Virus record (IMG/VR): IMGVR_UViG_3300020582_000008
Coordinates: 287 to 64,286 of that record
Length of the DNA: 64,000 nt
From: a virus
Taxonomy: Duplodnaviria; Caudoviricetes
Direction: 5' to 3' (one strand)
A model generated the notes under the pieces. It made no database searches. It was not told the DNA's origin and worked only from the letters and a program-made list of their open reading frames with translations. A program made the position numbers and the translations under genes. Positions 2,317-48,768 of this stretch are shown here, piece after piece. Position 1 is the first letter of the stretch. Each line of letters begins with the position of its first letter.

Positions 2317-3122
2317 CGACAGAAACCGAAAGCATTGCGGCGCTTGCCCGAAAGACTGCCGCGCCTACGACGATCAAGACTGACGACGGCCGCGAATATT
2401 TGATTTTTGCGGAAGGTTCGACTGTCCGCGAAATCTCCGATGAATATTCGCTGAAAGTCACCACGCCGCGGTACATCAACCAATCTGTTACACTGCAAAC
2501 GCAAGACTCCCTGACCAATTACGTCAAGGCATTCAAGAACGAAAATACGCTGCTGTTCGCCGACATCGGCACTAACTCCATCGTGGGCATCATCGATTAT
2601 CACGCGCCGGCCAAGGCCGATCATGTGGCCCACAAAGCCACCCTCACTCTGCCCTTTTCCGAAGAATGGCGTTTGTGGAGCGAAGTATCCAGCAAACTCA
2701 AACCTCAACTAGAATTTGCCCGGTTTTTGGAAGAGAATGCGGCGGACGTGCGGGCACCATCGGCCGGCGATCTGCTTGATGCCTGCCGCGATCTGCAAGT
2801 CCATCGCAAGGTGAATTTCGTCAAGGCCGTTCGCACTGCAAGCGATAACGAGAATTTCGAGTATACTGAGGAAACAAACGCTACAAACAAAAAGAGCGGT
2901 CTCGAAATTCCTACCAAGTTCGTTCTGGGTCTGCCGGTCTATTTCGGCGAGGAAGATACCGAAGTGTCCGCGTTCCTGCGCTGGCGGCTCGATGATGGTT
3001 CTTTGACGCTCGGCATTCAACTGCATCGGGTTGAACATGTGCGCCAGGCGGTGTTCAAGCAAATCGTTACCGCTGTGGCGGAAGCAACTAGCTGTCCGGT
3101 GGTCTTTGGCAAAGCCGTGTGA
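2313..3122 (+). CDS. DUF2303 (YfdQ) family protein
   Basis: IIDYH, SEEWRLW, QLEFARFLEEN and IPTKFVLGLPVY motifs. Confidence 0.85.
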   Translation: MTTETESIAALARKTAAPTTIKTDDGREYLIFAEGSTVREISDEYSLKVTTPRYINQSVTLQTQDSLTNYVKAFKNENTLLFADIGTNSIVGIIDYHAPAKADHVAHKATLTLPFSEEWRLWSEVSSKLKPQLEFARFLEENAADVRAPSAGDLLDACRDLQVHRKVNFVKAVRTASDNENFEYTEETNATNKKSGLEIPTKFVLGLPVYFGEEDTEVSAFLRWRLDDGSLTLGIQLHRVEHVRQAVFKQIVTAVAEATSCPVVFGKAV

Positions 3123-7937: not shown

Positions 7938-8561
7938 ATGGGTGCACTGCACAATCCAGCGCATGAAATCTTCGCCCGCGAGGTTGTTGAAGCTCTCCTG
8001 AGTTCCGACCCGAATGTGCGCCGTAATGCCCGAAAAGTAGGCTACGAGCGTGCCGGTTATCCCGGCAACAAGCACAATGCACGCCGGCTGGCAAATTCTC
8101 CGGTCGTCAAAAAGCGAATCAAGCATCTGTTCGAGGAAGCAATTGCGTTCCGCGACGTGCGCTTGGCAACGGTCGTCATGCGGATCGATCGCGTCGGCAA
8201 GGCCAATATCCGGGACTTTTACGGCGACGATGGCAAGCTGAAAGATATTTGTGCGCTGCCCCTCGAATTGAGCGAAGCCGTCCGAAGTGTGATTCGCAAT
8301 GCGGAAGGTGAGGTTTTGGCCTACGAATTCTGGGACAAAAACCAGGCCAATTTCACCCTCTTGAAAAACCTTGGCGGATTGCCCGATACTGACCCTGACA
8401 AGCCGCAGCCCGCGGGTAACACGACGTACAACTTCTTCGCAGGTCTCAGTGTCGAAGATCAATGCGCTCTTGCCGATGCTCTCGACGCTCTCTCCGGAGG
8501 GCCGGAAACTATTGAGCACGAGGCTGCGCGAGAACCTAGCGAAGCAGGCGCCGTTCCGTAA
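7938..8561 (+). CDS. terS: terminase small subunit
   Basis: LHNPAHEIFAREV, YERAGY, NARRLANSPVVKKRI; lies directly before TerL. Confidence 0.8.
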   Translation: MGALHNPAHEIFAREVVEALLSSDPNVRRNARKVGYERAGYPGNKHNARRLANSPVVKKRIKHLFEEAIAFRDVRLATVVMRIDRVGKANIRDFYGDDGKLKDICALPLELSEAVRSVIRNAEGEVLAYEFWDKNQANFTLLKNLGGLPDTDPDKPQPAGNTTYNFFAGLSVEDQCALADALDALSGGPETIEHEAAREPSEAGAVP

Positions 8562-9276
8562 GCTGTATTCGCTCTATCCCGATGAAGGAATGTTGCGACG
8601 TGAACTCTATCCTCGGCATATGGCTTTTTTCGCTGCTGGGGGATTTCATGATCCGATTGAAACGTGGTGCCCAGAAGGCTGCGATGGTTCTCCGCATCGT
8701 GAGCGACTGGCACTGTGTGCAAACCGCGTCGGAAAAACCTTGGGCATGGGCGGTTATGAACTCGCGTTGCATTTGACCGGTCGCTATCCGGATTGGTGGC
8801 CAGGTTATCGTTTCGACCGCCCGATTGAAGCGTGGGCCGCCGGCAAGACAAACGAAACGACGCGCGATATTATCCAGCGCGAAACTTTATTTGGCCCGAT
8901 CAAATGGTTCGGGCGCAAGAAAGGTGTTTCAGGCACGGGGCTGATTCCCGCAGAGGATGTTGATCAAGAGACGATCACTTGGAAACGCGGCATCGCCGAC
9001 TTTATCGATACTATCCAAATCAAGTCGCAGTTTGGCGGCTGGTCATCGCTCGGAATCAAATCGTATGAACAGGGCCGCGGGGCGTTTGAAGGGACGGCCA
9101 AGGATTTCATCTGGGACGATGAAGAACCTCCATTGCCGATCTACACCGAACAATCGATCCGATTGATGACCAAAGCCGGCCTGTCGGTTTTGACCTTTAC
9201 CCCTTTGGAAGGCATGTCGGATGTGGTACAAGCGTTCTTGCCTGGCGGGAGATTGCCAGGGGAATCGGAGTTTTAG
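8476..9276 (+). CDS. terL: terminase large subunit, ATPase part (split gene, P22-like)
   Basis: Walker A ANRVGKT, Walker B FIWDDEEPP, motif III LTFTPLEG. Confidence 0.9.
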   Translation: MLSTLSPEGRKLLSTRLRENLAKQAPFRKLYSLYPDEGMLRRELYPRHMAFFAAGGFHDPIETWCPEGCDGSPHRERLALCANRVGKTLGMGGYELALHLTGRYPDWWPGYRFDRPIEAWAAGKTNETTRDIIQRETLFGPIKWFGRKKGVSGTGLIPAEDVDQETITWKRGIADFIDTIQIKSQFGGWSSLGIKSYEQGRGAFEGTAKDFIWDDEEPPLPIYTEQSIRLMTKAGLSVLTFTPLEGMSDVVQAFLPGGRLPGESEF

Positions 9277-9278
9277 AT

Positions 9279-9494
9279 ATGGCTGCGACAGCAAAGCCTA
9301 TTACATTTGAGGAATGGGGACGTAGCCAATTGCAGCCTGCCGCTTTGGCGTGCAGATGTGATGAGCAAGCGGATATTCTCAAGGAATATCTTACTGGCGA
9401 ATTTAAGGATTTTATCGACATCAAGGAGCGCGCTGGGTTGGTCGAGTTACAAGCACGGCTGCGCTTGCGGGCGGTTGAACTGCGTGCAGTATGA
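9279..9494 (+). CDS. hypothetical protein between the two terminase halves
   Basis: GGAG RBS; ATGA overlap with the nuclease half. Confidence 0.6.
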   Translation: MAATAKPITFEEWGRSQLQPAALACRCDEQADILKEYLTGEFKDFIDIKERAGLVELQARLRLRAVELRAV

Positions 9495-10300
9495 CCGACG
9501 CCCCAAGCCTCTCTGCCGGCCCAGCCGAAGAAGTCATAGCGAAGCGATCACGCTTTGTCGTGATGGCCGGCTGGAATGACGTTCCGCATCTTACCCCCGA
9601 AATGATTGCGGAAGAAAAATCCCGCATCCCACCCCACGAATTCGAAGCACGCTCACTCGGCAAACCATCCCTCGGCCAAGGCGCGGTCTACCCTGTTCCT
9701 GAATCCGAAATCCTTTGCGATCCGTTCATCGTCCCCGATTGGATGCCGCAGTGCTATGCGCTCGACGTGGGCTGGAAACGAACCGCCGCGCTGTGGGGAG
9801 CCTGGGACCGCGACAACGACGTGGTGTATCTGTACGGCGAACACTATCGCGGGCAGGCCGAACCTCCAATTCATGCCGCTGCGATCCGCGCTCGGGGCTT
9901 ATGGATTCCCGGAGTCATCGATCCCGCCGCGCAAGGCCGAGGCCAGAAAGACGGTGCACAACTGCTCACCATCTACCAGAATGATCTTGGCCTTAATCTC
10001 ACCCAAGCCGATAATGCGCTCGAAGCTGGGATCGTCGCGGTGTGGCAGAGACTCACAACGGGGCGGCTCAAAGTGTTTCGGACGCTGGTTAATTGGATCA
10101 AGGAATATAGGTTTTATCAGCGCGACGAACACGGGCGAATCAAAGACGGACAAGCCGATCACTTGATGGACGACACGCGCTATCTTATCATGTCCGGGTT
10201 AAGCGTTGCGTGCGTGCGGCCGGCCGATCAGTGGACTACGGGTAAATCACAAGTCGCATGGCAAGCGGAATATGACCCCCTCGCCTACCAAACCCGATGA
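9491..10300 (+). CDS. terL: terminase large subunit, lid + RNase H-like nuclease part
   Basis: WNDVPHL, EARSLGKPSLGQGAVYP, ALDVGW, DHLMDDTRY. Confidence 0.9.
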   Translation: MTDAPSLSAGPAEEVIAKRSRFVVMAGWNDVPHLTPEMIAEEKSRIPPHEFEARSLGKPSLGQGAVYPVPESEILCDPFIVPDWMPQCYALDVGWKRTAALWGAWDRDNDVVYLYGEHYRGQAEPPIHAAAIRARGLWIPGVIDPAAQGRGQKDGAQLLTIYQNDLGLNLTQADNALEAGIVAVWQRLTTGRLKVFRTLVNWIKEYRFYQRDEHGRIKDGQADHLMDDTRYLIMSGLSVACVRPADQWTTGKSQVAWQAEYDPLAYQTR

Positions 10301-15920: not shown

Positions 15921-16955
15921 ATGGCTTCCTTGACCCTGGCCGATGTCGGCCGTCGCATGGACCCTGGCGGCAAAATCGCCGACATGGCCGAACTGATGTC
16001 TCAATGCAACGAGATCGACGAGGATGCCCCGCTCGTAAAAGGCAATCTCACAACCGGCCACGTTGCCACGCTCCGAACCGCTCTGCCGAAGGGCACTCTT
16101 CGACGCTTCAATCAAGGCGTCGGCTACACCAAATCCTCGGCTGCGCAGATCACGTTCGGCATGGCGATGCTGGACGCCTATTCGCAGATCGACAAAAGAC
16201 TCGCCGATCTTGGTGGAAACACCAACGCCAACCGCGAGAAAGAGGACGTGGCCCACATGGAGGGCATGTCCCAGCAGTGGACTGGCTTCCTCGTTTATGG
16301 AAATGCTTGGACCACTCCCGAACAGTTCTCCGGTTTTTCAACCTACTTCTCCGCAATCGCCAATACACCGAACGGCGTCAATGTGTTCGACGCTGGGGGA
16401 ACTGGTTCCTCAAATACCTCGATCTGGCTCATCGGCTGGGGCGACCAGACGGTTTACGAGATTTACCCGGATGGTACGAAAGCCGGGCTGATCTTCGAGA
16501 ACAAAGGTGATGTTGTCCCGGCGTTCACATCGAACGGCACGGCCCGGTACGAAGCCTATACGTCCTACTTCTCGCGTAACGGCGGTCTCGCTATCGAGGA
16601 CTGGCGCTATGTGATTCGCATGGCGAACTTCGATACCACGACCGCAGGGCTTGCTGGTCCTACTCCCCCGGACATCTTTGCGATCATGTCGAAGTCGGTT
16701 GTTCGTCTGCCGACGGCAGGGCGGATGGTTTCCGGCATCGTCAAGACCGACGCACCGGATCGCGTCGCTCCTTCGATCCGCCTGAAATTCTACTGCGACC
16801 GTACCGCGCGGGAGTACATGGACATCCAGGCGATCCGGGATAAGAACGTGCTGCTTCGGCCCGAGGATTACGCCGGCCGTCCGATTGTGAATTTCCGCAA
16901 TATCGCAATCGGTGTGGTCGATCAGATTCTCGATACCGAAAGCCGCGTGGTCTAA
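15921..16955 (+). CDS. major capsid protein (BPP-1 Bbp17 / epsilon15 gp7-like, HK97 fold)
   Basis: TLAD, RTALP...RRFNQG, EDWRYVIRMAN, FRNIAI...DQILDTESRVV. Confidence 0.92.
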   Translation: MASLTLADVGRRMDPGGKIADMAELMSQCNEIDEDAPLVKGNLTTGHVATLRTALPKGTLRRFNQGVGYTKSSAAQITFGMAMLDAYSQIDKRLADLGGNTNANREKEDVAHMEGMSQQWTGFLVYGNAWTTPEQFSGFSTYFSAIANTPNGVNVFDAGGTGSSNTSIWLIGWGDQTVYEIYPDGTKAGLIFENKGDVVPAFTSNGTARYEAYTSYFSRNGGLAIEDWRYVIRMANFDTTTAGLAGPTPPDIFAIMSKSVVRLPTAGRMVSGIVKTDAPDRVAPSIRLKFYCDRTAREYMDIQAIRDKNVLLRPEDYAGRPIVNFRNIAIGVVDQILDTESRVV

Positions 16956-27700: not shown

Positions 27701-28244
27701 CCTTGGTCTTGAACATTTGGAAGGGATGACGGTCAATGCGCTGTGTGACGGGACGCCGGTCGTGGGGCTTGTGGTGGTGAATGGCTCTGTGATGCTGCCG
27801 AATCCTGCAAGCCAAGTGCTCATCGGCCTGCTTTTCATTGCGCAGGCGCAGTCGATGCACGCCGACATGCCGGGCGAGTTGATCCAAGGCAAACGCAAGA
27901 GGATTCAGGGCGTGACGGTCAGACTGGCAAATACCCGTGGCATCAAGCTCGGGCAGGATCAGCCGATTGCAGCCCAACAGCCGAATCAGATCGAGATTCC
28001 GTGGGATCAAGCGCCGAATCTTATGACGGCACTTACGGAGCCGAATGCTCTGGCGGGCGCAGGAAACGCCGTGCCGTTGTTCTCAGGCGATAAATACGTG
28101 GTGATCGCAGGCGATTACTCGACAACCAATGGTCAAGCCTCTCCGGGCATGGTAGCGGTGGAGCAAGATTTGCCTCTGCCGGCTGAAATCCTTGCCTTCA
28201 TCCCCGAATTGGAAGTCGGCGACACAGGCGACCAACATGCTTAG
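24798..28244 (+). CDS. tail tubular protein B / nozzle with inserted domains
   Basis: SFSSGEVSPSLYGRVDL, FQQRRV, WARHDT, GLEHLEG, QDLPLP. Confidence 0.9.
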   Translation: MTTPIMHSSFSSGEVSPSLYGRVDLAGWHKACSVARNFFVSYKGGLLSRGGLAYVGICKQSASANSVPPRNIPFTFNIFQSYILEFGEQYMRVVANGGYVTETAFAVTGATQANPCMLNIPGNNYVVGDWIFLINLGGMIQLDARTVIVRNVAGSAVTIQDVFGVPINSLAYGAYTTGGTAARIYTLTTPYHAVDLSYLKFIQSADTMSLTCVNQATQAEYPPQELSRLAANNWTIGPPSFAASIAAPGSCAVAGTTYATGPGPAAYGYVVTSIDSQTGDESQPSPVGVTTGVVDIAGQFGTNTVTWAAVPGASSYNVYRAAPDYTNVGNFSGQLFGYVGSSRSNSWQDTNVIADFATTPPLHTNPFAAGQILDIPMTNIGANYTAATASLTINSATGSGFVGTPIIGGAITGQRITFAANPFLNGARVSQQVGAATAQGLVVAVSATTIDVQLLGSQQFQGGGGGFGSSPVVDTSANSAVPTNTQLITLTGSGGWIGTFIENPGKGYLPTDTPIFADSGSGAGATGQLTVGPESGTFPGVAAYFQQRRVYADSIVAPDTYEMSQPGSYLNFDSADPPIDSDSITGTPWGEQIDGIQWMRPMPGGLVTFTGGTTWQVSGTAGAGSPITPSQQNAQAQEGIGSSPTIAPIRIRNNLLYVDSLNGFVNEINYNFYFNIYTGQDITLLSSQLFQNNNLVQWALSFSPYRLIWAVRNDGKMLSLTYIAEQEMRGWARHDTLGLFASVAVASEPPVNAAYFIVKRYVTGKGQWVYMQERMDNRLWQNVEQSYCLDSALSLAQPAPNANLVASAARGTGGVKLGAVILGGSGYSAGPAGQIVDDAGTGTGAVVTGFTVVAGAITNLAITPGVNYQLPRIIITDATGAGADISLVVDNTVTFTADGAVFSSANNGSVLRVGGGIGTNVAYQSPTQITAQVAPQAAIAATLANDPLNMPVPAAAGTWTLTAPVTAILGLEHLEGMTVNALCDGTPVVGLVVVNGSVMLPNPASQVLIGLLFIAQAQSMHADMPGELIQGKRKRIQGVTVRLANTRGIKLGQDQPIAAQQPNQIEIPWDQAPNLMTALTEPNALAGAGNAVPLFSGDKYVVIAGDYSTTNGQASPGMVAVEQDLPLPAEILAFIPELEVGDTGDQHA

Positions 28245-28773
28245 CATGAACGGCCACGGTCTCGCGAAAGTACCGCTCGACTTAGAGCCTATGCTGCGTG
28301 GCTACTCTATCGAGCCAACCGAAGTCGGCCACATCTACAAACTGGCCGATTCTCTCCGCGACCAAGATCGAACGGAGATTCTAAATCTCGGATTTGGCGT
28401 CAAGAAAGCCCTGTGGAGAGCCTATCGTAACTCGATCATGTGCAAGACGGCGTTGGTGGCTGACAAGGTTGCGGCGATTTGGGGGTTGGGAATAGGTTTG
28501 CGTGCGGGTGTGAGTCCTTTGTCCGATCTTGGTGTGCCGTGGTTGCATACGTCGGCTGCTATTGAATCTGTTCCTTTCTCATTTGTGCGAGTAGCGAAAG
28601 CAGAGTTGGCAGCTATGTTGAAGTTAAGGCCACGACTTGAATCGTTTGTGGCTGCTGACTATGCGCAGGCGATCAAGTTTCTTCGGATTTTGGGCTTTGC
28701 TGTGGAAAAACCGGAAGCGGTTGGGTTGAATGGTGCGCTGTATTGTAGGTTTCATATGGGCTTTGACGCTTAA
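28237..28773 (+). CDS. GNAT-like internal virion/tail assembly protein (T7 gp13-like)
   Basis: LRDQDRTEI, GVPWL, AIKFLRILGF; follows the nozzle. Confidence 0.75.
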   Translation: MLSMNGHGLAKVPLDLEPMLRGYSIEPTEVGHIYKLADSLRDQDRTEILNLGFGVKKALWRAYRNSIMCKTALVADKVAAIWGLGIGLRAGVSPLSDLGVPWLHTSAAIESVPFSFVRVAKAELAAMLKLRPRLESFVAADYAQAIKFLRILGFAVEKPEAVGLNGALYCRFHMGFDA

Positions 28774-28777
28774 GCAA

Positions 28778-28836
28778 TTGGTTAGACTGGCTACCTTGGC
28801 GTGCGATTATTCTGTGAGAGTCTTACGGCCATAGAG
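28778..28836 (+). repeat. 59-bp element copy 5 (solo, left-type)
   Basis: ttggttagactggctaccttggcgtgcgattattctgtgagagtcttacggccatagag, followed by gattgagaaaaaagatc-ATG. Confidence 0.95.
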
Positions 28837-28853
28837 GATTGAGAAAAAAGATC

Positions 28854-29378
28854 ATGGGTGCGGCACTTCTTCCGGTTATGTTGGTCGCGGGCGTCGCGGG
28901 CGCCGGATTGTCTGCGGCCGGCACTTACGGATCGATGGAGGCGGCTTCCAAGAATGCGGCCTACCAAGCGCAAGTCGCGGCCAATAATGCAACCATCGCT
29001 ATGAAAAACGCTGCGATGGACACGCAGTCGGGGGAGATCGCGGCGTCGAATCAGGGACTCAAGACACGCGCGGCGGTCGGCAAGACCTTGGCGCAGCAAG
29101 GGGCGTCCGGGGTTGACGTGAATACCGGCTCCGCTCCCAAAGTACGCGCGGCAGAAAGCGAACTCGGCGCGCTTGACGCGATGACGATTCGCTCCAACGC
29201 GGCCAAGAAGGCATATTCCGACACGGTTGCGGCGACGAGCGACACGGCGGAATCCCAATTGCTCACGTCGGAGTCGGATCAGGCCGCGACTGCGGCGCCA
29301 ATCTCCGCACTCGGAAATTTCCTGGGCTCGGCATCGAGCGTTGGCGGCAACTTCGGTAAAGCAATGGCGACGGGTTGA
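28854..29378 (+). CDS. small ejection (internal virion) protein
   Basis: Ala-rich; GASGVDVNTGS and DAMTIRSN motifs. Confidence 0.8.
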   Translation: MGAALLPVMLVAGVAGAGLSAAGTYGSMEAASKNAAYQAQVAANNATIAMKNAAMDTQSGEIAASNQGLKTRAAVGKTLAQQGASGVDVNTGSAPKVRAAESELGALDAMTIRSNAAKKAYSDTVAATSDTAESQLLTSESDQAATAAPISALGNFLGSASSVGGNFGKAMATG

Positions 29379-29380
29379 CC

Positions 29381-29824
29381 ATGAACCTAAATAGGCGCAG
29401 TTTTTTCATCGGCGCGGCGGCAGGTTTGCTTGCTTCATCTGTCGTGTCAGCATCAAGCCTAATGTCGCTACGCCCCGGCTTTTCCGGACATTGGTTGCGA
29501 CAACAAATCTTTTTGAAAGAGAAAGATGGGGATGTATGGCGCACCATAGACCGGATTGATTGTTCTGGTCTTGAAGGCGCTGAGCCGCCAGATGTTTTTG
29601 CGATGATGGCGAGAAGCGTTATTAAATTGCCGCCGCAAAAATTGAGAATTGCCCCGGAACGCTGGGGGCTTGATGTTGTGAAAATGATTAAATTTGAAAC
29701 CACGCTAGAGGTTAGACAACATATGGAAATGCAGGCAATTCGCAGCCGAAATGTTCTAGTGAGAACTATTGGGGATAATACACCTGTCCCTTGTGCGTTC
29801 CGCGGTATAGCAATCGAATCGTGA
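29381..29824 (+). CDS. twin-arginine-signal protein carrying a diverged copy of the MCP C-terminal region
   Basis: NRRSFF + hydrophobic leader; three colinear blocks match the MCP. Confidence 0.75.
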   Translation: MNLNRRSFFIGAAAGLLASSVVSASSLMSLRPGFSGHWLRQQIFLKEKDGDVWRTIDRIDCSGLEGAEPPDVFAMMARSVIKLPPQKLRIAPERWGLDVVKMIKFETTLEVRQHMEMQAIRSRNVLVRTIGDNTPVPCAFRGIAIES

Positions 29825-29827
29825 GTC

Positions 29828-32044
29828 ATGGCCGGTCAAATTCTCAATGTAGACTTTCCTGAAATAAATCCCTCGGGCGCTCCGTCCGACGATTATGAGC
29901 GCATTCCGTCATCGCCCAATATGTTCGGCGCGTATGGCGCGGAAGCCCTGAAACAGACCGGCGAAGGATTGGTCAAGGCGGCGGACACTGGTCTAGCCTA
30001 TGTCACTCAGCAGAACGAATACAACAACCAGATTCACGCCAGCGAATTGCATTCGTGGTTTTCCGATCAAGCTGGCGATCTTGTATCGAAGCATTCCGAG
30101 TTGCAGGGGCGGGCGGCACTCGATGCTCTCCCGGACCTGAAAAAGAAGATAGGCGATCTACAAACGCAAGCTGAATCGCAGGCCGGAAATCTCCCTACAA
30201 AGGCTCTCGTCGCCGGTAACACGCGGCGCACGATGGATTGGCTGGTCGGGGCGGCTACACATCACGCCGATGCGCAGCATACCGCGTGGGCAACAAAGAC
30301 GGCGGCGGATAACGTTACTGCGGCTTCGAACATTGGCGGTCTCGCGATCCAAACGGGTGATTTCAATAAACTCGATGAGCAGATGGATACCATCGGGAAG
30401 GAAGCCCACAATTATTTCGATCCAATGGGCTACGATCCGCAGACATTGGATGTGGAAGTCTCGAAGTATCGCGGAAGTGCGGTTAAGAATTGGGTCGAAA
30501 CCGCAGCAACAAATCAGAACGATCCGGACGCACTCACTCACGCGGTCGCTATTTATCATCGCTATAGCGATGAGATTGATCCTGCCAGTCGTCTGATAAT
30601 TTCCAAAGAATTGAATACGAAAGTTTTCAATCGCACAGTCGATAGACTCTCGAATTATTATATCAGCGGTTCGGTCGCGGGCCTCAATCCAAGTTTTGTT
30701 GCCGGGCTAAAACAATCCGAGGGTTACAAAGACAAGCCGTATTGGGATGTGAATCATTGGAGTGTGGGATATGGCACGCCAGCATCGGGGCCGGATGAAA
30801 AAGCCGACAGGTTCACTCTCGAAGGACGATTTGAAGATAAGGTGACGGAAGCTGCTGCTACAGTGGATTCGGTAAATCCTCACCTTGATCCTGGCACACG
30901 CGCCGCGCTTACGTCACTGACTTTCAATACAGGAACGAAATGGACAACGTCCGGTCTAGGCGATGCGATCCGCGGCGGCGATTTGATGAAGGCGCAGGAG
31001 CTATTCAAGCAATATAATCAGGTCAATGGAAAATTCGATCAGTCGATTGCAGATAGGCGCAATCGCGAAGCCGAGTGGTTTGGCCGGCAGGATGCGCAGG
31101 GTGTTCCAAAACCCGATGTGGCGTCGTTGATTCAGCGCGTGCGAACCGATCCATCTTTTGAGAATCGCCCTGAGCTACAAAAGGCCGTCGAACAAAATAT
31201 CCTCTCAAAGACCGCCATGCAGGAGCGCGCCGACGCTCTACAGGCCAAGCAACAAAAAGAAACATCCGATGCAACCGAATGGGAAGTGTTCAAGAATATC
31301 CACTCCGACAAACCATCGGTGACGATGGATATGATCGATAAGTTGCCGCTCACGGTCGAAGCCAAGAAGAGGATGACGGATCAATTGGAGAAGGCGACGG
31401 GGACGGAGAAGACTGAGCGCACCTATGGCGCTGGTTTCTACGATATGTACCGCCGCATTCATCTGCCCGAAGGCGATCCTAATCGCGTGACGGATGGTTC
31501 GCAGCTTTACGGCCATGTTGGGCCGCAAGGCGATTTGACCGTTGCCGGCGTCGATAAATTGAATACGGAAATCCAGGCGCGCAAATCCCCGGAAGGCGTC
31601 GCCGAATCAGAAATGAAAGCGCAGTTTTTGAAGAATGCGCGAGCGCAGATCACGGGGACTGACGAAGGGCTCCACATCAAAGACCCAAAGGGCGACGAAA
31701 TTTATTTGAAGTTTCTGGCGCAAGTGCTGCCGCAGTATGACGCACAGCGCAAGGCTGGCAAGACGGCGCCGGAACTATTCAATCCTACAAGCAAGGACTA
31801 TCTCGGTAATGCAATCGCGGGTTTTAGGCGACCGCCGGACCAATGGTATGCCGACATCATTACCGATCAAGCATCGCCCGAGACTTTCGACGTGAGCAAA
31901 GTCAAATCGCTTGAGGATTTGGTTGCTGCTTATCGTGCCGGAAATGTCGATAAGGCGACCGCCGATGCGACCGCTATTGCGAAGGGCTGGGCGACACGCA
32001 AGCCGCCCGCGCCTGCGATGCCAACCGTGCCGATGAGCCAGTGA
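29828..32044 (+). CDS. ejection protein with a GH24 lysozyme-like domain
   Basis: SEGY...YWD...SVGYGT, ALTSLTFNTG, RRNREAEWF. Confidence 0.8.
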   Translation: MAGQILNVDFPEINPSGAPSDDYERIPSSPNMFGAYGAEALKQTGEGLVKAADTGLAYVTQQNEYNNQIHASELHSWFSDQAGDLVSKHSELQGRAALDALPDLKKKIGDLQTQAESQAGNLPTKALVAGNTRRTMDWLVGAATHHADAQHTAWATKTAADNVTAASNIGGLAIQTGDFNKLDEQMDTIGKEAHNYFDPMGYDPQTLDVEVSKYRGSAVKNWVETAATNQNDPDALTHAVAIYHRYSDEIDPASRLIISKELNTKVFNRTVDRLSNYYISGSVAGLNPSFVAGLKQSEGYKDKPYWDVNHWSVGYGTPASGPDEKADRFTLEGRFEDKVTEAAATVDSVNPHLDPGTRAALTSLTFNTGTKWTTSGLGDAIRGGDLMKAQELFKQYNQVNGKFDQSIADRRNREAEWFGRQDAQGVPKPDVASLIQRVRTDPSFENRPELQKAVEQNILSKTAMQERADALQAKQQKETSDATEWEVFKNIHSDKPSVTMDMIDKLPLTVEAKKRMTDQLEKATGTEKTERTYGAGFYDMYRRIHLPEGDPNRVTDGSQLYGHVGPQGDLTVAGVDKLNTEIQARKSPEGVAESEMKAQFLKNARAQITGTDEGLHIKDPKGDEIYLKFLAQVLPQYDAQRKAGKTAPELFNPTSKDYLGNAIAGFRRPPDQWYADIITDQASPETFDVSKVKSLEDLVAAYRAGNVDKATADATAIAKGWATRKPPAPAMPTVPMSQ

Positions 32045-35000
32045 TGCAGGATGTTCAACCACAACAGCCTGCCGCCGCGCCTGCCCCGCAGGACGTGGAC
32101 GCGCTGTTCCCGGAGAAGGGTGGGGCGCAGGATGTTGATTCGCTGTTCCCGGCTTCGGTCGAGGCGGACAGGAAGGCAAAGAATTATGGGGTTTCTCACT
32201 CGCCCGTGCAGGATTTAATCTTCGGCGACAAGACGGTAAATCCGGTTGCGCGGATATTGGATTCGTTCGGGCAGGGATTCGAGCAAGGGTGGGGCACTGA
32301 TCGGTTGGGATTGTCCGATGAAAGTACCGATTATCTGAAAAAGATTGGCATCTTCAACGATTATCAAAAGGGCCAATCGAGCCTCGTTAAGACCGCGAAC
32401 GAAGTCCTGTTGCGGCCGGCGGCGGTCGCGCTCGATGCTGTAATCAGGCGCGGCCTGCCAGGAATGTTTCGCGGCGGTCAGGCCGTTGTCCAACAATTAG
32501 GTGAGGAAGTTGGGGCACCAAATATTGCCCGCGAAATTGCCGCTTTGCCGGAAGCCTTCCCTACCGGGTTGCATGGGCCGGTCAGTGGAGTGCCGATACC
32601 TGGCCTTGGTCTTAGCGAAGCCTATCGTAATTCGCCGGGATTGATTGAGACGGCGCGGCAGATGCGCGTGATAGGTGCCGGCGAGCGCGGTTGGGCCGGT
32701 ACGGCGCCAGTCGAAGCGCCAAAGGGCGAACCGGTCAAGATTGAGACCGCGCCGCAGCCGGTAGCGGGAAAATCGGAACAACCGTCACCAATGACGCCGC
32801 CGCCTGCCGCAGTCACGCCGAGTCCTGAGGATATTGCGCCCGACATCCACACGGCAGCGCGCCAAGCCGCGCCCGATGTCTTTGCGCGCTACGACACGTT
32901 GAAGCAGCAACAGGACGGTTTGCAAAAATGGCTTACCGAACGCGAGGCGCAAGGGCAGCCCGAACCTGGTGTGAAGGCTTATCTCGACGGCGTGAACAAG
33001 GAACTCGACGAACTCTCGCCACAGGTCAAGGCGGCGTATCAGCAAGCGGCGGAAACTACGAACGCCGCAACAGTGCCGCCGCCTGTGTCGCAATCGTGGG
33101 GGATGTTTCCGCCGCCGGAAGTGACCGGAGCGCCAGCGAAGATCGACGCAACGCATACCGTTCTCTCGGGCGCAAATTCGACCGCAGACGGAACGGTTGT
33201 CGTCGATCATAACATTCCAGAATTCTCGCCGACACTCAAAGATAAAGACGGCAATCCGGCGAATCTGCACAAGTATCTCGTCGTGCATGAGACCGCGGAA
33301 TCTGAGGCGATGGCGAAGTGGAAAGCGGAGTTTATCGCAAGGGAAGGCCGAGTACCGACGCAGGAGGAAACGACCAAATACTACAACGACGTGGCTCATC
33401 CGAAGATTGCGACGCCAGCGGAACGCGCCGCGGTCGAAGCCGATGGCGTGTCATGGCCGGGCTATACACATGAAATGGACGGATACCTTGATCGGATCGA
33501 GCATGAGCCGAATACGAATCCGCCGCCCGGACAGATGCACATCGACCCGGAGGCTGCGATTGGGCATCACAAATCGGAGAACAAGCCGACCGTTGCACCC
33601 GAACAGGTCATCAAGCCAATCGAGGCGCAGCGCGATTTCATCGTCAACGATGTCAAGCACCAGTTGATCGCGGCGGGGCGGTCAGAGGCAGAAGCGCAGG
33701 CGGCGGGGCAGCTTGTCGCCGCGCGGTACGAGGCAAGAGCCGTAAGGCTTGGTGGGGCGCGCGGCAGCGCGGAGGAACTTTACAAGGCCGAGGGTGCCCA
33801 GATTCGCGGGCCGGGTGGACCGGCAGAGCCGCCGACCGTAGCACCTGCTCCGACCGCCGCGCCGGTTCCGTTGGCGGAACGTGCCCCCGCTGAGCAATGG
33901 AACGCCTTTGTCGCCGCGCGGGCCGAACGAACATCGCGGGCTGTCATAGAGACCGGCTATAACGCACTAACAACCAAACTCGGTGCACCGATCCATTTGC
34001 GACGCTCACAGGAATGGACACCCGGCAATGTCGTGGATGTGGGATTTGTCAAAGACCTGCTCATCACGTCGAAAAACTCCGATGGCACATTCACGCTGAT
34101 TGCCAAGCCGGACGCCAACGGAATCAGCAAGAGTTATAATGCCGAGGCTCACAAGGGGCTGGTCGGCGACAAGCCGGTGAGTTTCAAAGAGGCCACGGCG
34201 CCTCTACTTGAAGCAACAAAACCGGCAGAGGAAATCCCCGAGTCCGAAATTACCACAATCCACGTCGCTCCTAAAGCCGCACGCGGCCCGCGCGCTGTGC
34301 CGCAAGAACACTGGTCGCTCCTGCAATTCATCGCCGACCGCGGCGGAATAAAAGCCGACGACAAAAACATCGGCGACGTGCGAACGATCTTCGGCAAAGA
34401 TCAGAAGTGGATTCCCGGATTTGGCCCACTGATTCGCAAAGACGGCATGGAGTTAGACCGCGCCCGCGAGGCGGCGGTTGAAGCGGGGTATATCCAGGAT
34501 CACGGACAAAGCGGCGTGAGTACAGGCGAGGCCACGTCCAACATCGACACGCTGTTGCAGGCGATGGACCGCGAGGAACGTGGCACCAAAGTTTACCGCC
34601 AAGGTGTTGAGCCACAGGAAGCCCGCGAGCGCGTGCCCGATGCCGCCGAACTGGAACAACACAGAGCGGAACAAGCGGAACTCGATTCCCGCATAGCCGA
34701 TTATCTGCAAGAAGTCGGTATCAAGCGGAACGAAATAGAACCATCCATCGCCGCCAGAATGCGCGAACTGATGGACAGACAAAGACTGGAACCCGACATC
34801 GCCCACGAACGGGCCGTGATGGAGGCAGACGATCATGCCGTCGAAACCGAAAATGCTCCCGAACGCGCCGAGTATATCCCCGGATGGGATGTACCTGATG
34901 ACACCAGAACAGCACAGGGCGCGGGCGAAGCAACTCCTAAAGGCGAAGAAGCCGCACCTGGCGCTGGCCCACGAACAGATCGCGACGGCGATAGAGAAGC

Positions 35001-38000
35001 GTATGCGGATAAAACAAACGTAACTAAAGCCGCTCTCGAAATTGCCGAACCACCCACTCAATCAAAACCGTTTGTATTCGATAATCCAGAACTTGAGGCT
35101 CGGTATCATGCCTGGAAGGCCGCGAGAGAGACTGAGAAAGATGAGGCTTGGAAGGAATTCTACCAGCGGAAAAATCTCATAGAAGAACGCGAGGCCGAAG
35201 GACAGCAGCAGGTTCCCGGTGCCGAGAGAATCGGCGATGCCGAACGAGTGCAGCGCGCGGCTGACCAGCCGTTGAAGCCCAAAGCCGAACAGAAGCCTAT
35301 GGATGAAGGGTTGTTTGGTGACGAAAAAGACCAGCAAGAACTATTCCAACAAGCGCGCGGCGGCATCGTCCTAAACCCCAACGCTGTCCCCGGCCACGAC
35401 TACATCGGCATGGAGAACGTCAGACCTCTAATGAGATTGACCGCAGAGGCCAACGCCTCGACATTCTTTCACGAATCCGGCCACCAATATCTAGCGGAAC
35501 TCGTCCGGGATGCTGCCCACGAAGCCGCACCCGCAGACCTCAAGGCGGACGCGCAGACCGTCATGGATTGGCTCGGACTGAAAGGGCCACAGGACTTAGC
35601 CCTAGGCTCCGATGCCTCACGAGCGGCCAAAATCAAGGCAACCAAGGCCCATGAGAAATTCGCCAGGGGATTCGAGCAATATCTGAGGGAAGGCATCGCC
35701 CCCTCTCAACAGCTTGCCGGGGTGTTTGCCAAGTTCAAGCAGTGGATGCTCAATATCTACCAGACGATCAAAGGCTTAGGCGCCCCGATCAGTGACAATA
35801 TTCGGGGCGTTTTCGACCGGATGTTGGCCGAACAGCCTCAAAGGACGGTGATTGCACCTGAGATTGCCAAAAGGCCGGATTTGCAGGATATTCATGAGTC
35901 GGACGCTGTTCTGACCGAGCCGCATGAAGCGGAGCGGGCGGGAGACCGCGTTCAAGCCGAAGATGCTAGAGCCAGAGCAGAACTGCCCAAGGACATAGCG
36001 GATGAGCATCGAGGAAGTGCAGAGAAAATTGGAACTAGCCCAAGCGAACCAATCCCATTGGGAGAAAATCGCGGCGGACCCGACACTATCGGTCCAGGCG
36101 GCGCTGGCAGCGCGGAACTCGGCACGGAGCCACAAGGCGGCAGTCACATTGTACCGCAAGGCGCTGGGCTACGAACACGAGAAGGCGGCGCCGGCACAAT
36201 AGAGCCGCTTCCTATCGGCCCTCATGTTCCGCTGGATGCTTTGCCAGCAGAGAAGATGGATAAGGTCGGAAATATCCGGCTGGAAAATCTCAATACGCCG
36301 GCCGATGTCAATAATGCCATCCGAGATTTGTATAACTCCAATCGCGAGCAATTAGACACAGCCACTCGCGGCGTTGTCTCAGATCAAACAGTCATGGACT
36401 TGGCCGATGCTATGGGCGCCGATCCGCGCGTCGTTGCCAATAACATGGAGCGCCTTCGCCAAATGTCGGTAGAGGACGGCGTTCCTCTCGCCGCGCGCAT
36501 TTGGTTGATGCGCGATATGTTTACAAAGCTCAGTGCCGAAGTTGCAAACTTGGCGCAGGGCGACGACGTAGCCGCCTTTGCGTCGGCTCGGCAAAGATTT
36601 TTGATGGCCTTCGAAACGTTGTCCGGTGTCACGGCGGAAATGGGCCGCGGAATGCGTGCGTTCCGCAACATGAAAACCCAGATGGCGAGTGCCATCGAAA
36701 TGGCCAACATCTTAAGAGACGATCCAAAAACTCTGTTTCAGCTTAAGCAGCAAATGGCGTTGGCGCGGGCTGCTGAGACGCCTGCGCAAAGCGCGGCTGA
36801 GATACAGCGATCAAATAGAACGCCGTGGCAGAGGATTCGGGCTGGGGTGATTTCCTACGTCATCAATAATCTGATTTCTGGTCCGATCACGCACGTCATG
36901 TACTCGGTCGGCAACGATGTTCTGCAACTCTTTAAGGCGTTGCCGGAAACCGCCGCCGCGAGCTTGGCTGGCCGCGTGTTGGTTGCGACAGGAAAGATCA
37001 GTGAAGAAGATCGTATCCGCATGGGAGAGGCTGGGCCGCGGCTTTACGGCATGGTCTACGGCGCTCGGGATGGTTTGTCGGCGTCCTATAGCGCGCTCAA
37101 AACAGGCGTGTCGGTGATGAAGGGCGATCCTTCCGGTATTGATCTATTCTCGAATGAGATTGCCTATCGGCCGCAGGAAATTCCCGGCACGGTTGGGTAT
37201 GTCCTGGAAACGCCGTCGCGGTCGGTTGCGGCGATTCATACGATGCATTACGGCATGAACTACGAATCTGAGATTGCGGCGCTGGGATACCGCGATGCGA
37301 TAAAACAAGGATTCGATCTCGGAACCGACGAATTCAACAGCCACGTCGCCGACTTTCGTATGAATCCGCCGCGCGACGCGATGGACATTGCCCATCAAAA
37401 TGCCTTGGAAATGGTGCTCATGCGCAGACCTCCTTACGGTGGTCTGCAAAACTGGATTCAGAATCTAACAAACAAGTATGTGCTTGCTAAACTGGTTGCG
37501 CCGTTTGTCCAGATAGGAGGCAACATTCTTCGCGGCGGCTTCATCGAGCGCACGCCGCTTGGCCTCATGGATCAGACGGTAAGGGATAATCTGCTCGGCC
37601 GAAACGGAGCATTCAAACAGCAAGAGCAATATGGACGGATGATGGTCGGAAGCACTCTGGCCGTCTCAACCATCGGACTCGCGGCGCAAGGCATCCTCAC
37701 GGGCGGCGGTCCTTCCGATCCCAAACAGCGCGAAGTCATGGAAATGACGGGTTGGAAGCCCTACAGCATCAAAGTTGAAGGCGAATATATCCCATACCGC
37801 AAATATCTTTCGGTCTATGGGCCGTTAGTTGCCGGCGCGGCGGATATGTACGAAGTCGGGCACGCCATGAGTGAGAAAGGATTGGCGCAAGGCGCCGCTG
37901 CTCTCTCGTTCGGATTTGCGGAAGTGGTTGCCGATGAAACATGGATGCGCGGGATTACATCGTTGATCGATGCCGCGCGGCATTGGGACCGCGACGGCGC

Positions 38001-38544
38001 CAAGTACATTCGCAATCTGTCAACCGAATTTATCCCGTTCTCAATCGGAATGCGCCAGATCGCTTCGTTGGCCGATCCAACGTGGCGCAGCGTACGCTCG
38101 GAAATGGATGCGTTGCGCGCTCACATCCCCGGCCTAAGTCAAAGTCTCTTTCCTGTCCGCGACCTGTGGGGCCAGCCGATGCGCGGCGGCTCCATGATGT
38201 CATGGTCCCCCGCCGTAAACGATCCAGCAACAATCGCGCTACAAAAAGCCGAATACTACCCGGCGCGACCGGAGCGAAAGATTCGCGGCGTCGAATTGAC
38301 CGATCAACAATACGACGATTTCACGCGAATCGCCGGACGCGACGCCAAGATGCGAATTAATGCGATGATCTCAAATCCGGGCTTCGATCTTATCCCCAAG
38401 CAAATCCGCCAGGAACAGTTGAAAAACGCTATGGAGGGTGGGCGAGATATGGCGCGAACGGTGATCTTGATGCAGTATCCCGAAATTATGAAACAGGCGC
38501 TCGCCACCAAGCAACTGCCCTTCCAAAGCACGGTTGCCCACTGA
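32044..38544 (+). CDS. large ejection / polyvalent internal virion protein
   Basis: About 2166 aa; STFFHESGH...HEKFARGFEQYLREG zincin-like module; C-terminal LTGGGPSDP...GWKPYSIK. Confidence 0.85.
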   Translation: MQDVQPQQPAAAPAPQDVDALFPEKGGAQDVDSLFPASVEADRKAKNYGVSHSPVQDLIFGDKTVNPVARILDSFGQGFEQGWGTDRLGLSDESTDYLKKIGIFNDYQKGQSSLVKTANEVLLRPAAVALDAVIRRGLPGMFRGGQAVVQQLGEEVGAPNIAREIAALPEAFPTGLHGPVSGVPIPGLGLSEAYRNSPGLIETARQMRVIGAGERGWAGTAPVEAPKGEPVKIETAPQPVAGKSEQPSPMTPPPAAVTPSPEDIAPDIHTAARQAAPDVFARYDTLKQQQDGLQKWLTEREAQGQPEPGVKAYLDGVNKELDELSPQVKAAYQQAAETTNAATVPPPVSQSWGMFPPPEVTGAPAKIDATHTVLSGANSTADGTVVVDHNIPEFSPTLKDKDGNPANLHKYLVVHETAESEAMAKWKAEFIAREGRVPTQEETTKYYNDVAHPKIATPAERAAVEADGVSWPGYTHEMDGYLDRIEHEPNTNPPPGQMHIDPEAAIGHHKSENKPTVAPEQVIKPIEAQRDFIVNDVKHQLIAAGRSEAEAQAAGQLVAARYEARAVRLGGARGSAEELYKAEGAQIRGPGGPAEPPTVAPAPTAAPVPLAERAPAEQWNAFVAARAERTSRAVIETGYNALTTKLGAPIHLRRSQEWTPGNVVDVGFVKDLLITSKNSDGTFTLIAKPDANGISKSYNAEAHKGLVGDKPVSFKEATAPLLEATKPAEEIPESEITTIHVAPKAARGPRAVPQEHWSLLQFIADRGGIKADDKNIGDVRTIFGKDQKWIPGFGPLIRKDGMELDRAREAAVEAGYIQDHGQSGVSTGEATSNIDTLLQAMDREERGTKVYRQGVEPQEARERVPDAAELEQHRAEQAELDSRIADYLQEVGIKRNEIEPSIAARMRELMDRQRLEPDIAHERAVMEADDHAVETENAPERAEYIPGWDVPDDTRTAQGAGEATPKGEEAAPGAGPRTDRDGDREAYADKTNVTKAALEIAEPPTQSKPFVFDNPELEARYHAWKAARETEKDEAWKEFYQRKNLIEEREAEGQQQVPGAERIGDAERVQRAADQPLKPKAEQKPMDEGLFGDEKDQQELFQQARGGIVLNPNAVPGHDYIGMENVRPLMRLTAEANASTFFHESGHQYLAELVRDAAHEAAPADLKADAQTVMDWLGLKGPQDLALGSDASRAAKIKATKAHEKFARGFEQYLREGIAPSQQLAGVFAKFKQWMLNIYQTIKGLGAPISDNIRGVFDRMLAEQPQRTVIAPEIAKRPDLQDIHESDAVLTEPHEAERAGDRVQAEDARARAELPKDIADEHRGSAEKIGTSPSEPIPLGENRGGPDTIGPGGAGSAELGTEPQGGSHIVPQGAGLRTREGGAGTIEPLPIGPHVPLDALPAEKMDKVGNIRLENLNTPADVNNAIRDLYNSNREQLDTATRGVVSDQTVMDLADAMGADPRVVANNMERLRQMSVEDGVPLAARIWLMRDMFTKLSAEVANLAQGDDVAAFASARQRFLMAFETLSGVTAEMGRGMRAFRNMKTQMASAIEMANILRDDPKTLFQLKQQMALARAAETPAQSAAEIQRSNRTPWQRIRAGVISYVINNLISGPITHVMYSVGNDVLQLFKALPETAAASLAGRVLVATGKISEEDRIRMGEAGPRLYGMVYGARDGLSASYSALKTGVSVMKGDPSGIDLFSNEIAYRPQEIPGTVGYVLETPSRSVAAIHTMHYGMNYESEIAALGYRDAIKQGFDLGTDEFNSHVADFRMNPPRDAMDIAHQNALEMVLMRRPPYGGLQNWIQNLTNKYVLAKLVAPFVQIGGNILRGGFIERTPLGLMDQTVRDNLLGRNGAFKQQEQYGRMMVGSTLAVSTIGLAAQGILTGGGPSDPKQREVMEMTGWKPYSIKVEGEYIPYRKYLSVYGPLVAGAADMYEVGHAMSEKGLAQGAAALSFGFAEVVADETWMRGITSLIDAARHWDRDGAKYIRNLSTEFIPFSIGMRQIASLADPTWRSVRSEMDALRAHIPGLSQSLFPVRDLWGQPMRGGSMMSWSPAVNDPATIALQKAEYYPARPERKIRGVELTDQQYDDFTRIAGRDAKMRINAMISNPGFDLIPKQIRQEQLKNAMEGGRDMARTVILMQYPEIMKQALATKQLPFQSTVAH
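34889..35023 (+). CDS. candidate overprinted small ORF
   Basis: Amphipathic basic peptide in an alternative frame where the host frame is low-complexity. Confidence 0.4.
   Translation: MYLMTPEQHRARAKQLLKAKKPHLALAHEQIATAIEKRMRIKQT
36002..36202 (+). CDS. candidate overprinted small ORF
   Basis: AAGGA RBS; helical 66-aa peptide in an alternative frame. Confidence 0.5.
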   Translation: MSIEEVQRKLELAQANQSHWEKIAADPTLSVQAALAARNSARSHKAAVTLYRKALGYEHEKAAPAQ

Positions 38545-47749: not shown

Positions 47750-47908
47750 ATGGAGAAAATCGTTACCGAAAACGTCTACCCGCCAATCCCGATACGGCAG
47801 TTCGATTGGGCCGCGCACTACGATGACCCAGAGGGTCCTGTGGGCTGGGGTGCCACAAGAGAGGCGGCAATTGCTGACTTGATCAACAATTACCCGAGGG
47901 AATCATGA
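47750..47908 (+). CDS. small PPIP..FDW family protein, copy 1
   Basis: GGAGG RBS; MEKIVTENVYPPIPIRQFDWAAHYDD...; ATGA coupling; below the ORF-track cutoff. Confidence 0.75.
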   Translation: MEKIVTENVYPPIPIRQFDWAAHYDDPEGPVGWGATREAAIADLINNYPRES

Positions 47909-48768
47909 AACCGCTTTGCATTTATCATGGTGCATGTGACGACGGATTCGCAGCGGCTTGGTGTGTCCGCAAACGCTTTCGTGATGAGGTCGAATTCTAT
48001 CCCGGCGTTTATCAGAAAGAGCCGCCGCCGCATGAGGGACGCGACGTTGTGTTTGTCGATTTCAGCTATAAGCGGCCGGTCCTTGACGCGATGGCGAAGA
48101 TTGCAAATTCAGTTTTGATCCTCGATCATCACAAGACGGCGGCCGAAGATTTGGCGGATATTGCGCCAGCGCCGGATTTCATCGACTGGCGTGGCGCGGC
48201 GGCAATTGACGGCTCTGGCAACAATATGTTCGCGCTGTTCGATATGAATCGAAGCGGCGCAGCAATGGCTTGGGATTATTTTATCGGCGGTCCGCGCCCC
48301 GACTTTATTGAGTATGTGCAAGACCGCGATCTCTGGCGCAAGGCGCTCCCATGCGGCGACGAATTCACGATTGCGCTGCGCTCCTATCCGCAAGATTTTT
48401 TGATTTGGGATAAGTTCGTTGACGCTGGCGCTCAGTCTTTGATCGCCGAAGGCGGTGCAATACAGCGCTACTATCGTTTACGCGTTGAGGAACTGAAAAA
48501 GAGTGCATACGCTGCAACGCTCGACGGACAAAATATCTGGATCGCGAACGCTCCGTATTTCGCCGCGAGCGAAGTTGCCGGCGAACTAACAGAACGCGAT
48601 GGTGCCTATGGCGCGTGCTACTTCGAGGCCGAAGGCGGCCGATACCAATATTCGCTACGCTCGCGCGGCGACTTCGATGTAAGCGCCGTGGCGCGGAAAT
48701 TTGGTGGCGGCGGCCACAAGGCCGCTGCCGGCTTTTCTGTCGATCAGCCCGCGCATACGAAACGGTGA
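47905..48768 (+). CDS. DHH/DHHA1 phosphoesterase (NrnB-like)
   Basis: YHGACDDG, VDFS, LDHHKT, SLRS, GGGGHKAAAGF. Confidence 0.9.
   Translation: MKPLCIYHGACDDGFAAAWCVRKRFRDEVEFYPGVYQKEPPPHEGRDVVFVDFSYKRPVLDAMAKIANSVLILDHHKTAAEDLADIAPAPDFIDWRGAAAIDGSGNNMFALFDMNRSGAAMAWDYFIGGPRPDFIEYVQDRDLWRKALPCGDEFTIALRSYPQDFLIWDKFVDAGAQSLIAEGGAIQRYYRLRVEELKKSAYAATLDGQNIWIANAPYFAASEVAGELTERDGAYGACYFEAEGGRYQYSLRSRGDFDVSAVARKFGGGGHKAAAGFSVDQPAHTKR

Follow-up and report, generated by a model that had tools for sequence, protein, structure and literature searches.

A Tat-type leader joined to a capsid A-domain-like module in an accessory gene of an uncultivated phage

We identified a small gene of 147 codons in a 64,286-bp IMG/VR virus record that is rated complete by CheckV. 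The window, i.e. the 64,000-nucleotide stretch of DNA that was analysed, covers nearly all of this record (Table 1). The gene encodes a hydrophobic leader, as quoted in the initial annotation and confirmed in the ORF translation, followed by a cargo that resembles part of the major capsid protein of the same phage. An in-frame TTG at 29375 is an alternative start that would add two residues, and an ORF on the opposite strand (29263-29829) is unsupported, as homologs exist for the plus frame instead. The placement of the gene between two ejection genes, proposed initially, is reasonable as far as annotation goes: the upstream neighbour resembles internal virion proteins, and the downstream neighbour with its lysozyme domain comes before an ORF of 2167 aa, which presumably encodes a giant internal or ejection protein. 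The N-terminus of the upstream neighbour is also hydrophobic and Gly/Ala-rich. The arrangement is not that of a moron with its own flanking promoter and terminator, as the gene abuts both neighbours. A crude consensus scan found no promoter-like sites in 28000-30500, and terminator-like sites were no more frequent than in shuffled sequences, none of them flanking the gene.

Table 1. Position of the leader-cargo gene, its surroundings and related leader genes. Locations refer to the window unless another locus is named.
Feature	Location	Strand	Remarks
Accessory gene, 147 aa, Tat-type leader and capsid A-domain-like cargo	29381..29824	+	ATG 29381, stop 29822-29824
Leader, residues 1-24	29381..29452	+	n-region RR (codons 29393-29398), hydrophobic h-region, V-S-A, then conserved SSLM
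Cargo, residues 41-147	29501..29821	+	homologous to C-terminal third of capsid protein
Major capsid protein, GP7 / epsilon15 / BPP-1 type	15921..16955	+	PF20911, E 1.9e-91
Capsid residues 219-334, segment homologous to cargo	16575..16922	+	BLASTP and hhalign
Upstream neighbour, internal virion protein-like (phrog_418)	28839..29378	+	stop 2 nt before ATG at 29381
Downstream neighbour, 738 aa, lysozyme domain	29828..32044	+	start 3 nt after stop of 147-aa gene
2167-aa ORF	32041-38544		next after lysozyme-domain gene
Second GC-poor stretch (0.47-0.48)	30450-30900		within 738-aa gene
Split terminase region	8371-9276, 9280-9495, 9491-10300		G007 counterpart: L161 304-2828
DNA methyltransferase-like gene (phrog_799)	3119-4456
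DHH phosphoesterase-like gene (phrog_4771)	47905-48768
tRNA-Val (TAC)	56287-56361	-
L020, tandem leader genes	L020 5701-6290		one cargo = residues ~285-332 of GP7-type capsids in other loci; other = residues 51-97 of own capsid
L052, tandem leader genes	L052 7924-8687		P22_CoatProtein-type residues 20-80 and 370-411
L062, L066, L082 leader genes			residues ~12-82 of own P22-type capsid; 51-64% identity, E 1e-15 to 1e-20
L075 leader gene			residues 10-51 of own Phage_capsid_3 protein
L081, L083 leader genes			start of own 451-aa protein (weak Phage_capsid_4 hit only)
L085 leader gene			tail Collar domain
L084 leader gene			first rungs of pectate-lyase-like tailspike helix (Pfam)

The capsid protein of this phage shows sequence matches to PDB entries 3j4u, 3j40 and 8cjz. 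Three colinear matches between the 147-aa protein and the capsid protein had been noticed from the sequence alone. These are real (a recount again gave 13/22 and 12/26) and all lie within one BLASTP alignment of residues 53-145 with capsid residues 228-330 (nt 16602-16910; 36% over 106 columns). The E-value was 2e-14 in the single comparison with the resident capsid protein and 2.8e-12 when all 6138 ORFs of the loci collected were searched. Comparison of the family profile with a 16-sequence capsid profile using hhalign aligned fragment residues 41-147 with capsid residues 219-334 (probability 99.5%, E 5.7e-23). Homology to the GP7 capsid family (PF20911) is therefore confined to the C-terminal third, and with only capsid residues 219-334 represented and no Pfam hit, the protein is a derivative of this family and not a member. 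No family in Pfam or PHROGs was assigned to the ORF, a word-indexed protein search with the 147-aa protein returned only the protein itself, and a tblastn search of 50,697 GenBank phage records gave no match with the low-complexity filter on, which possibly masked the leader. The gene is more AT-rich than its neighbours, as noticed before, with a GC content of 0.47-0.48 compared to 0.59-0.63 just upstream and 0.52-0.56 just downstream.

The capsid protein of BPP-1 consists of an N-element (residues 1-168), a beta-element (169-241) and an alpha-element (242-331), and the latter two supply both helices of the A-domain sheet and all but one of its five strands; their consecutive order at the C-terminus is described as the 'BPP topology' (PMC3863775). 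The alignments place the cargo over the last part of the beta-element and all of the alpha-element. An AlphaFold2 model based on a nine-sequence alignment had a mean pLDDT of 71.8, with values of 81-93 over residues 41-90 and 86-87 over residues 101-120 and low values over the leader and two loops. The elements are predicted in the order hairpin, helix, strand, helix and two strands. A Foldseek search of the model against the PDB gave nothing significant (best 8cjz, E 0.45). The structural superposition that had been suggested, on the HK97-fold A-domain, was best on 3j4u (VIA-align Z 7.0, rmsd 3.1, 86 residues aligned), 8cjz (Z 5.6) and 3j40 (Z 5.0), followed by a fourth entry with Z 4.0; these top Z values are middling, but the top three entries are the expected GP7-type homologs. 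The hhalign and VIA-align results support the original description of a module like the capsid axial (A) domain behind an export-type leader, and 'A-domain-like module' is a fair name for the cargo. As the A domain is contiguous and C-terminal in the BPP topology, a plain 5' truncation could yield such a compact domain. A complex prediction for the capsid protein and the mature fragment scored 0.00 in two runs, which included no controls and carry no weight for or against binding. Compared to the GP7 capsids (BPP-1 Bbp17, 3J4U; epsilon15 gp7, 3J40; Carin1, 8CJZ), the cargo is homologous to the C-terminal third and keeps the conserved motifs, whereas the 147-aa protein lacks the N-element (N-arm, E-loop, spine helix and P domain) and therefore cannot build a shell, carries the export-type leader and evolves several-fold faster.

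A HMMER scan of 1.84 billion representative proteins identified eight other proteins at E-values up to 0.001. These homologs are 113-153 aa long, are all metagenomic singletons and are 35-42% identical over the matched stretches; a first scan of genome contigs with a capsid-motif pattern had found no relative. They keep the SLM motif just after the leader as well as the capsid-conserved motifs PPD.F..M, QA.R..NV and FRG, and RR is conserved in all eight family members whose N-terminus is present (the called start of P0006 lies further downstream). The ORF is thus not a neutrally decaying frame lacking homologs, nor is its RR motif a variable one, the two outcomes that would have spoken against the initial annotation. 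In a tree of eight fragments and 22 capsid C-termini, seven of the eight fragments grouped apart from all capsids, the resident one included, and a grouping of all eight is also compatible with the data (AU p 0.257). The end branches of the fragments measured 0.6-2.5 compared to a capsid median of 0.14, and the tree is limited by long-branch effects. A recent local duplication of the resident capsid gene is ruled out by this clustering, which indicates that the gene arrived ready-made, as leader plus fragment, from a fast-evolving family. The dN/dS ratio, suggested as a check, was 0.10-0.34 in three informative close pairs of other leader genes (at most 15 substitutions each) and 0.76 in a fourth pair, from seven substitutions, and a fifth pair was identical; the values are below 1, with tiny counts. 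As eight short homologs retain both the leader and the capsid motifs, the 147-aa gene is not decaying.

A scan of IMG/VR with the family patterns returned full-length capsid genes and, in addition, leader-only matches at 55-72% identity, which start small ORFs with unrelated C-termini. With a leader pattern, 100 stretches were found in IMG/VR (2.9 million contigs), 65 of which were confirmed as loci, and 27 stretches in 185,579 species genomes, with 22 confirmed; 17 of these 22 are titled Alphaproteobacteria or members of this class (Roseiarcus, Rhodospirillales). A collection of 5.8 billion proteins contributed 138 leader proteins among 140 candidates at E-values up to 10, and the best 120 of the 138 are 68-205 aa long, with 'hypothetical protein' as the source name where there is one. 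Among proteins of 217-2000 aa in the same collection, none of 56 candidates scored, which is weak evidence that the leader is absent from larger proteins. A tblastn search of the GenBank phages with two other leader proteins gave no match with the low-complexity filter on. In the collections searched, all leaders are on small ORFs that belong to uncultivated phages or MAGs, and no cultured phage carrying it was found in the collection searched; this origin may explain why the family has escaped notice.

The collected loci contain 49 leader ORFs, the one in the window included, with the consensus RRxFLTGLxxLxAAPAIVRASSLMPVK, in which conservation of V-R/K-A-S-S-L-M-P is partly by construction as this stretch belonged to the scan pattern and the remainder did not. 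RR is present in 43 of 43 distinct leaders, 16-17 residues upstream of the c-region motif, and was not part of the search motif; there is hardly any variation in the Gly, the Leu and the A-A-P-A block. Over the 14 conserved codons of 41 distinct leader DNAs, the entropy at codon positions 1, 2 and 3 was 0.53, 0.22 and 1.60 bits, and serines switch between codon families. This variation indicates selection on the peptide and rules out a conserved DNA element in its place. A profile built from 31 leaders, with the window left out, matched the N-terminus of the 147-aa ORF over profile positions 2-27 (E 1.1e-5) as the sole match in the 64-kb genome. The window leader is the most diverged seen, with V-S-A-S-S-L-M-S and neither Pro at -6 nor a basic c-region residue. 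In a departure from the initial annotation, the leader is a shared, highly conserved module that other phages join to other virion-protein pieces, and the search it suggested for Tat-leader genes with capsid fragments in other phages was successful (e.g., L020, L052, L062 and G007). Tandem leader genes occur in L020, L052, L058 and L070. On 13 MAG contigs (L098-L106, L108, L109, L111 and L112; Alphaproteobacteria or Roseiarcus) the leader precedes a conserved open frame of 130-230 aa, whose shared cargo has the motifs LALLQHEMERRF and TALWELRT.FGPRG.

At the n/h boundary the leaders have a Tat-type motif resembling S/T-R-R-x-F-L-K, which reads N-R-R-S-F-F in the window. The family anatomy is RR-x-F/L, an h-region of about 15 Gly, Ala and Leu residues, and a V-R/K-A site with a basic residue at position -2 and Pro at position -6. 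A basic c-region residue of this kind, for 'Sec-avoidance', is often present in Tat signals. The h-region is moderately hydrophobic (mean KD 2.15 in the family and 1.82 in the window). Cut-offs of the Tat HMMs, which are short models for which near-misses are common, were narrowly missed by the best relatives (TIGR01409, 16.4 versus 16.7 bits; PF10518, 14.6-15.7 versus 22.7) and clearly missed by the window protein, which matched only TIGR02811 (E 0.1). Apart from such weak Tat-signal hits, Pfam and PHROGs contain no model for the leader. Tat-signal proteins are its nearest neighbours in a language-model search, but as every score is under 0.9, the level from which the tool is trusted, they serve as a lead only. 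V-S-A and V-R-A fit the -3/-1 rule for signal peptidase I, and cleavage would be expected after V-S-A. According to a recent review, Sec export can be driven by most Tat signals as well, and charges in the c-region are a feature of some Tat substrates only; the phage passages of the same Tat review name no phage-encoded Tat substrate (PMC13673990). We infer from the sequence features that the leader exports the protein, with Tat the more likely route than Sec. Similar to bacterial Tat signals, the leader has RR followed by F/L, a moderate h-region, a basic c-region in most members, an A-x-A-like site and a small protein behind it; unlike them, it was found only on phage and MAG ORFs (68-205 aa among those listed) and stays below the curated HMM cut-offs. 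It also differs from ordinary signal peptides in being far more conserved across unrelated cargos and in a conserved block that continues past the putative cleavage site.

To identify the sources of the cargos, all 49 were compared by BLASTP with all ORFs of the loci. For twelve cargos (10 distinct) there was a match to a protein of 200 aa or more; according to Pfam, 11 of these targets are capsid proteins and one is a tail-collar protein, and seven of the capsid matches are within the same locus (Table 1). The leader genes of L062, L066 and L082 lie directly upstream of their own capsid gene, while many fragment genes lie kilobases away from it; in most other phages leader genes are found among small non-structural ORFs or beside terminase, portal and capsid genes. 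In L020 and in L052, the two tandem cargos come from one capsid family, one from its N-terminal and the other from its C-terminal part, and the order differs between the two phages. In an independent sample of 120 leader proteins, five had any Pfam hit (E up to 0.01), all to virion families: Gp23 (twice), SU10_MCP, Pel9A-like beta-helix and Head-tail_con, the last being the one portal-type cargo among the identifiable ones. As 36 of the 49 and 115 of the 120 cargos have no recognisable source, their description as virion-protein pieces is established for a minority only. The Gp23-type cargo of P0066 aligns to residues 95-117 of T4 gp23 (E 2e-7), the most widely conserved gp23 stretch, with matches in 787 phage records. 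Many cargos in other phages are pieces of 40-60 residues that are unable to fold alone.

A recurrent cargo motif, LRPGL.K.F...Y......W..(V/I)F, was noticed in L059, L063, L068, L069, L071, L073, L074, L051, L057, L061 and L094. It resembles an N-terminal helix as in some family of capsid proteins. Pfam and PHROGs gave no hit for the four of these cargos that were scanned (L068, L071, L051 and L061), and the L068-type cargo matched only itself in five contigs that are 13-46% complete. No match was found between the L065 cargo and its own tail protein or between the L034 cargo and the window tail protein, and the match of the L064 cargo to a 1299-aa neighbour (E 0.005, 23% over 56 residues) is too weak to count.

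The 147-aa gene is an acquired and dispensable accessory gene, as follows from the empty junction in related loci, the lack of a leader gene in the nearest complete genome and the low GC content. In L004 and L005, whose neighbouring gene is 90% and 60% identical to that of the window, the phrog_418 gene and the lysozyme-domain gene are nearly adjacent, only 53 and 6 nt apart. A leader profile search found no leader gene in all of G006, the nearest complete genome. In G008, classed as a provirus in IMG/VR and syntenic with the window (tail protein 43-48% identical), it found one leader gene, with an unrelated cargo, one junction upstream of the position in the window. No integrase was detected among ten window ORFs scanned, although G008 is classed as a provirus. 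In G007 the leader profile identified one leader gene, at a different place from the window; two leader-type ORFs lie there between the halves of a split terminase gene. The cargo of one of these consists of the last ~50 capsid residues, 59% identical to the capsid protein of G007 itself (E 1.3e-17) and 61% identical to that of the window, and the same ORF is 59% identical to the short fragment of L020 over 63 residues, leader included. The resemblance of its tail to the capsid of its own lineage, together with the homology to L020, may point to an exchange between this ORF and the resident capsid gene. Between the first leader ORF of G007 and the tail protein, only a 15-residue motif is shared (E 4e-4).

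The large terminase is encoded by two ORFs with the same split point in the window and G007 (87% and 94% identity), the C-terminal half containing a Terminase_6C nuclease domain. The gap is filled by a 71-aa ORF in the window and by the two leader-type ORFs in G007, and because of these different contents the junction looks like an insertion hot spot. The second GC-poor stretch in the window coincides with the region in which the L005 homolog of the lysozyme-domain gene (893 aa) differs in length and content, which suggests domain-level mosaicism.

Several known systems share features with the leader family. The T4 internal proteins combine a short conserved N-terminal capsid-targeting sequence with hypervariable bodies and variable loci; their address, a short hydrophilic sequence, sends the protein to the inside of the capsid, and the prohead protease removes it. 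The leader genes likewise have a conserved N-terminal address on small, fast-changing cargos at variable loci, but here the address is a hydrophobic RR leader. The Gol segment of gp23, whose limits we take to be residues 93-122, is a short capsid segment active by itself, and the P0066 cargo likewise falls within the first quarter of gp23. Gol, described as the most conserved part of the protein and placed in this first quarter, is sensed together with EF-Tu by Lit (PMC3014915), and capsid proteins act as the trigger of several defence systems (PMC10286901). Any link between the leader family and a defence system is speculation, as are the membrane tethering and the removal of a capsid-sensing defence protein through Tat that were proposed initially. 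Superinfection-exclusion proteins are small exported phage accessory proteins, and we know of no small exported phage protein that is built from a capsid piece or shares one leader across many cargos. Like superinfection-exclusion proteins and T4 antiholin RI, a periplasmic protein with a cleavable signal peptide (PMC8385771), the products of the leader genes are small, phage-encoded, signal-bearing and dispensable. The literature passages found contain no description of a Tat-type leader joined to capsid fragments; the parts are familiar, and the combination and its recurrence across capsid families were not found described there.

The reading we prefer, with a probability of roughly one half, is that a horizontally acquired accessory gene uses its Tat-type leader to deliver a capsid A-domain mimic that acts in phage-host or phage-phage conflict. 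The gene lies in the tail/ejection-protein operon of an uncultivated epsilon15/BPP-1-like phage. Because of this position and since no promoter-like site of its own was seen, the protein is probably made late, together with the virion proteins. The leader would take the small folded cargo to the Tat translocon, and a cargo that does not fold first may go to Sec instead. After cleavage the A-domain mimic, beginning with SSLM, would be freed to the periplasm or kept at the inner membrane. As related cargos, where identifiable, are virion-protein pieces and often come from the phage's own capsid, the cargo is read as a mimic or decoy. In what is the weakest step, a partner that recognises a virion-protein surface, speculatively a host sensor or a component of a rival phage, could be held by the cargo or exported from the cytoplasm with it. 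Against this reading stand the diverged state of the window leader, the many cargos with no recognisable source and the absence of the leader from proteins of 217-2000 aa, which, although weak evidence, is odd for a general-purpose export signal. Cargos of 40-60 residues that cannot fold alone fit poorly with the preference of Tat for folded cargo, the long fragment branches could reflect relaxed constraint, and the proposal offers no explanation for what a capsid surface meets in the periplasm.

The alternative that survives best, a possible one that we nevertheless regard as doubtful, is that the function resides in the leader, with the cargo as a passenger. A mobile cassette passing from phage to phage would capture, where recombination joins DNA, parts of the most conserved genes (capsid, portal, tail), with homology-facilitated illegitimate recombination as one conceivable route. 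The cargo would merely be tolerated and exportable, while the leader itself or its membrane segment acts, for instance on the timing of lysis, in the exclusion of superinfecting phages or by keeping Tat or signal peptidase occupied. This would fit a leader that is far better conserved than any cargo and the long cargo branches, the turnover of the gene at varied junctions (in the window, between the terminase halves in G007, after the tail gene in G008 and none in G006) and the tandem copies in four loci. The genes directly upstream of the capsid gene whose N-terminus they copy (L062, L066 and L082) and the capture of the most widely conserved gp23 stretch, a bias to conserved genes, point the same way. 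Left unexplained, however, is that the cargos keep the motifs of real capsid proteins at 35-42% identity; dN/dS on the cargo is below 1 in the close pairs (again with tiny counts), many fragment genes are kilobases from the capsid gene, and 36-64% amino acid identity is too low for present-day homology arms.

A more specific version of the conflict reading, in line with the initial proposal, seems unlikely to us. Rodrigue et al. are said to have described in 1999 a 'hitchhiker' Tat export, in which a small signal-bearing subunit carries a signal-less partner out. By analogy, phages of several lineages would share an export tag on short copies of those parts of their own virion proteins that host sensors or rival phages recognise (capsid A domain, capsid N- and C-terminal segments, the Gol-like gp23 stretch and tail-fibre or tailspike starts). 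The tagged copy would bind a recogniser in the cytoplasm and export it via Tat or pin it to the membrane, and so disarm capsid-sensing immunity during the build-up of the real virion proteins. Also rather improbable is an uncleaved, signal-anchored inner-membrane protein that holds the A-domain copy at the periplasmic face or frees it upon depolarisation. It would account for an h-region that is Gly/Ala/Ser-rich and only moderately hydrophobic, and for the SSLMPV block past the putative cleavage site, which is as conserved as the leader and in this respect unusual for a cleaved signal, but the site fits the signal peptidase I rule and the protein has no second membrane segment.

There is little to recommend a virion internal (ejection) protein that is delivered to the next host and whose hydrophobic N-terminus is a membrane-insertion or packaging segment. 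The position between annotated internal virion protein genes, the similar hydrophobic opening of the upstream neighbour and the leader gene of G008 in the same module would agree with it, but in most other phages leader genes lie outside such a module, the closest relative does without the gene, and an invariant RR at fixed spacing is a hallmark of Tat and is not known to serve packaging. A partly duplicated capsid gene, left as a neutral remnant with a hydrophobic start by chance, as the lack of Pfam, PHROGs and word-indexed hits might suggest, can practically be dismissed, as the gene is closer to other fragments than to the resident capsid (with seven of eight fragments apart from the 22 capsids), has eight intact homologs with the same leader, and is matched by a leader profile from unrelated phages.

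If delivery of a capsid A-domain mimic by a Tat-type leader holds, the family represents an undescribed class of phage accessory genes in which one conserved export-type leader is reused on virion-protein pieces from at least five capsid families, and it would offer a way to look for the capsid, tail and portal surfaces with a part in the conflict between phage and host. Should the cargo be a mere passenger, the family would still be an example of how small phage genes originate when fragments of structural genes are captured, with a leader peptide that is under unusual constraint.
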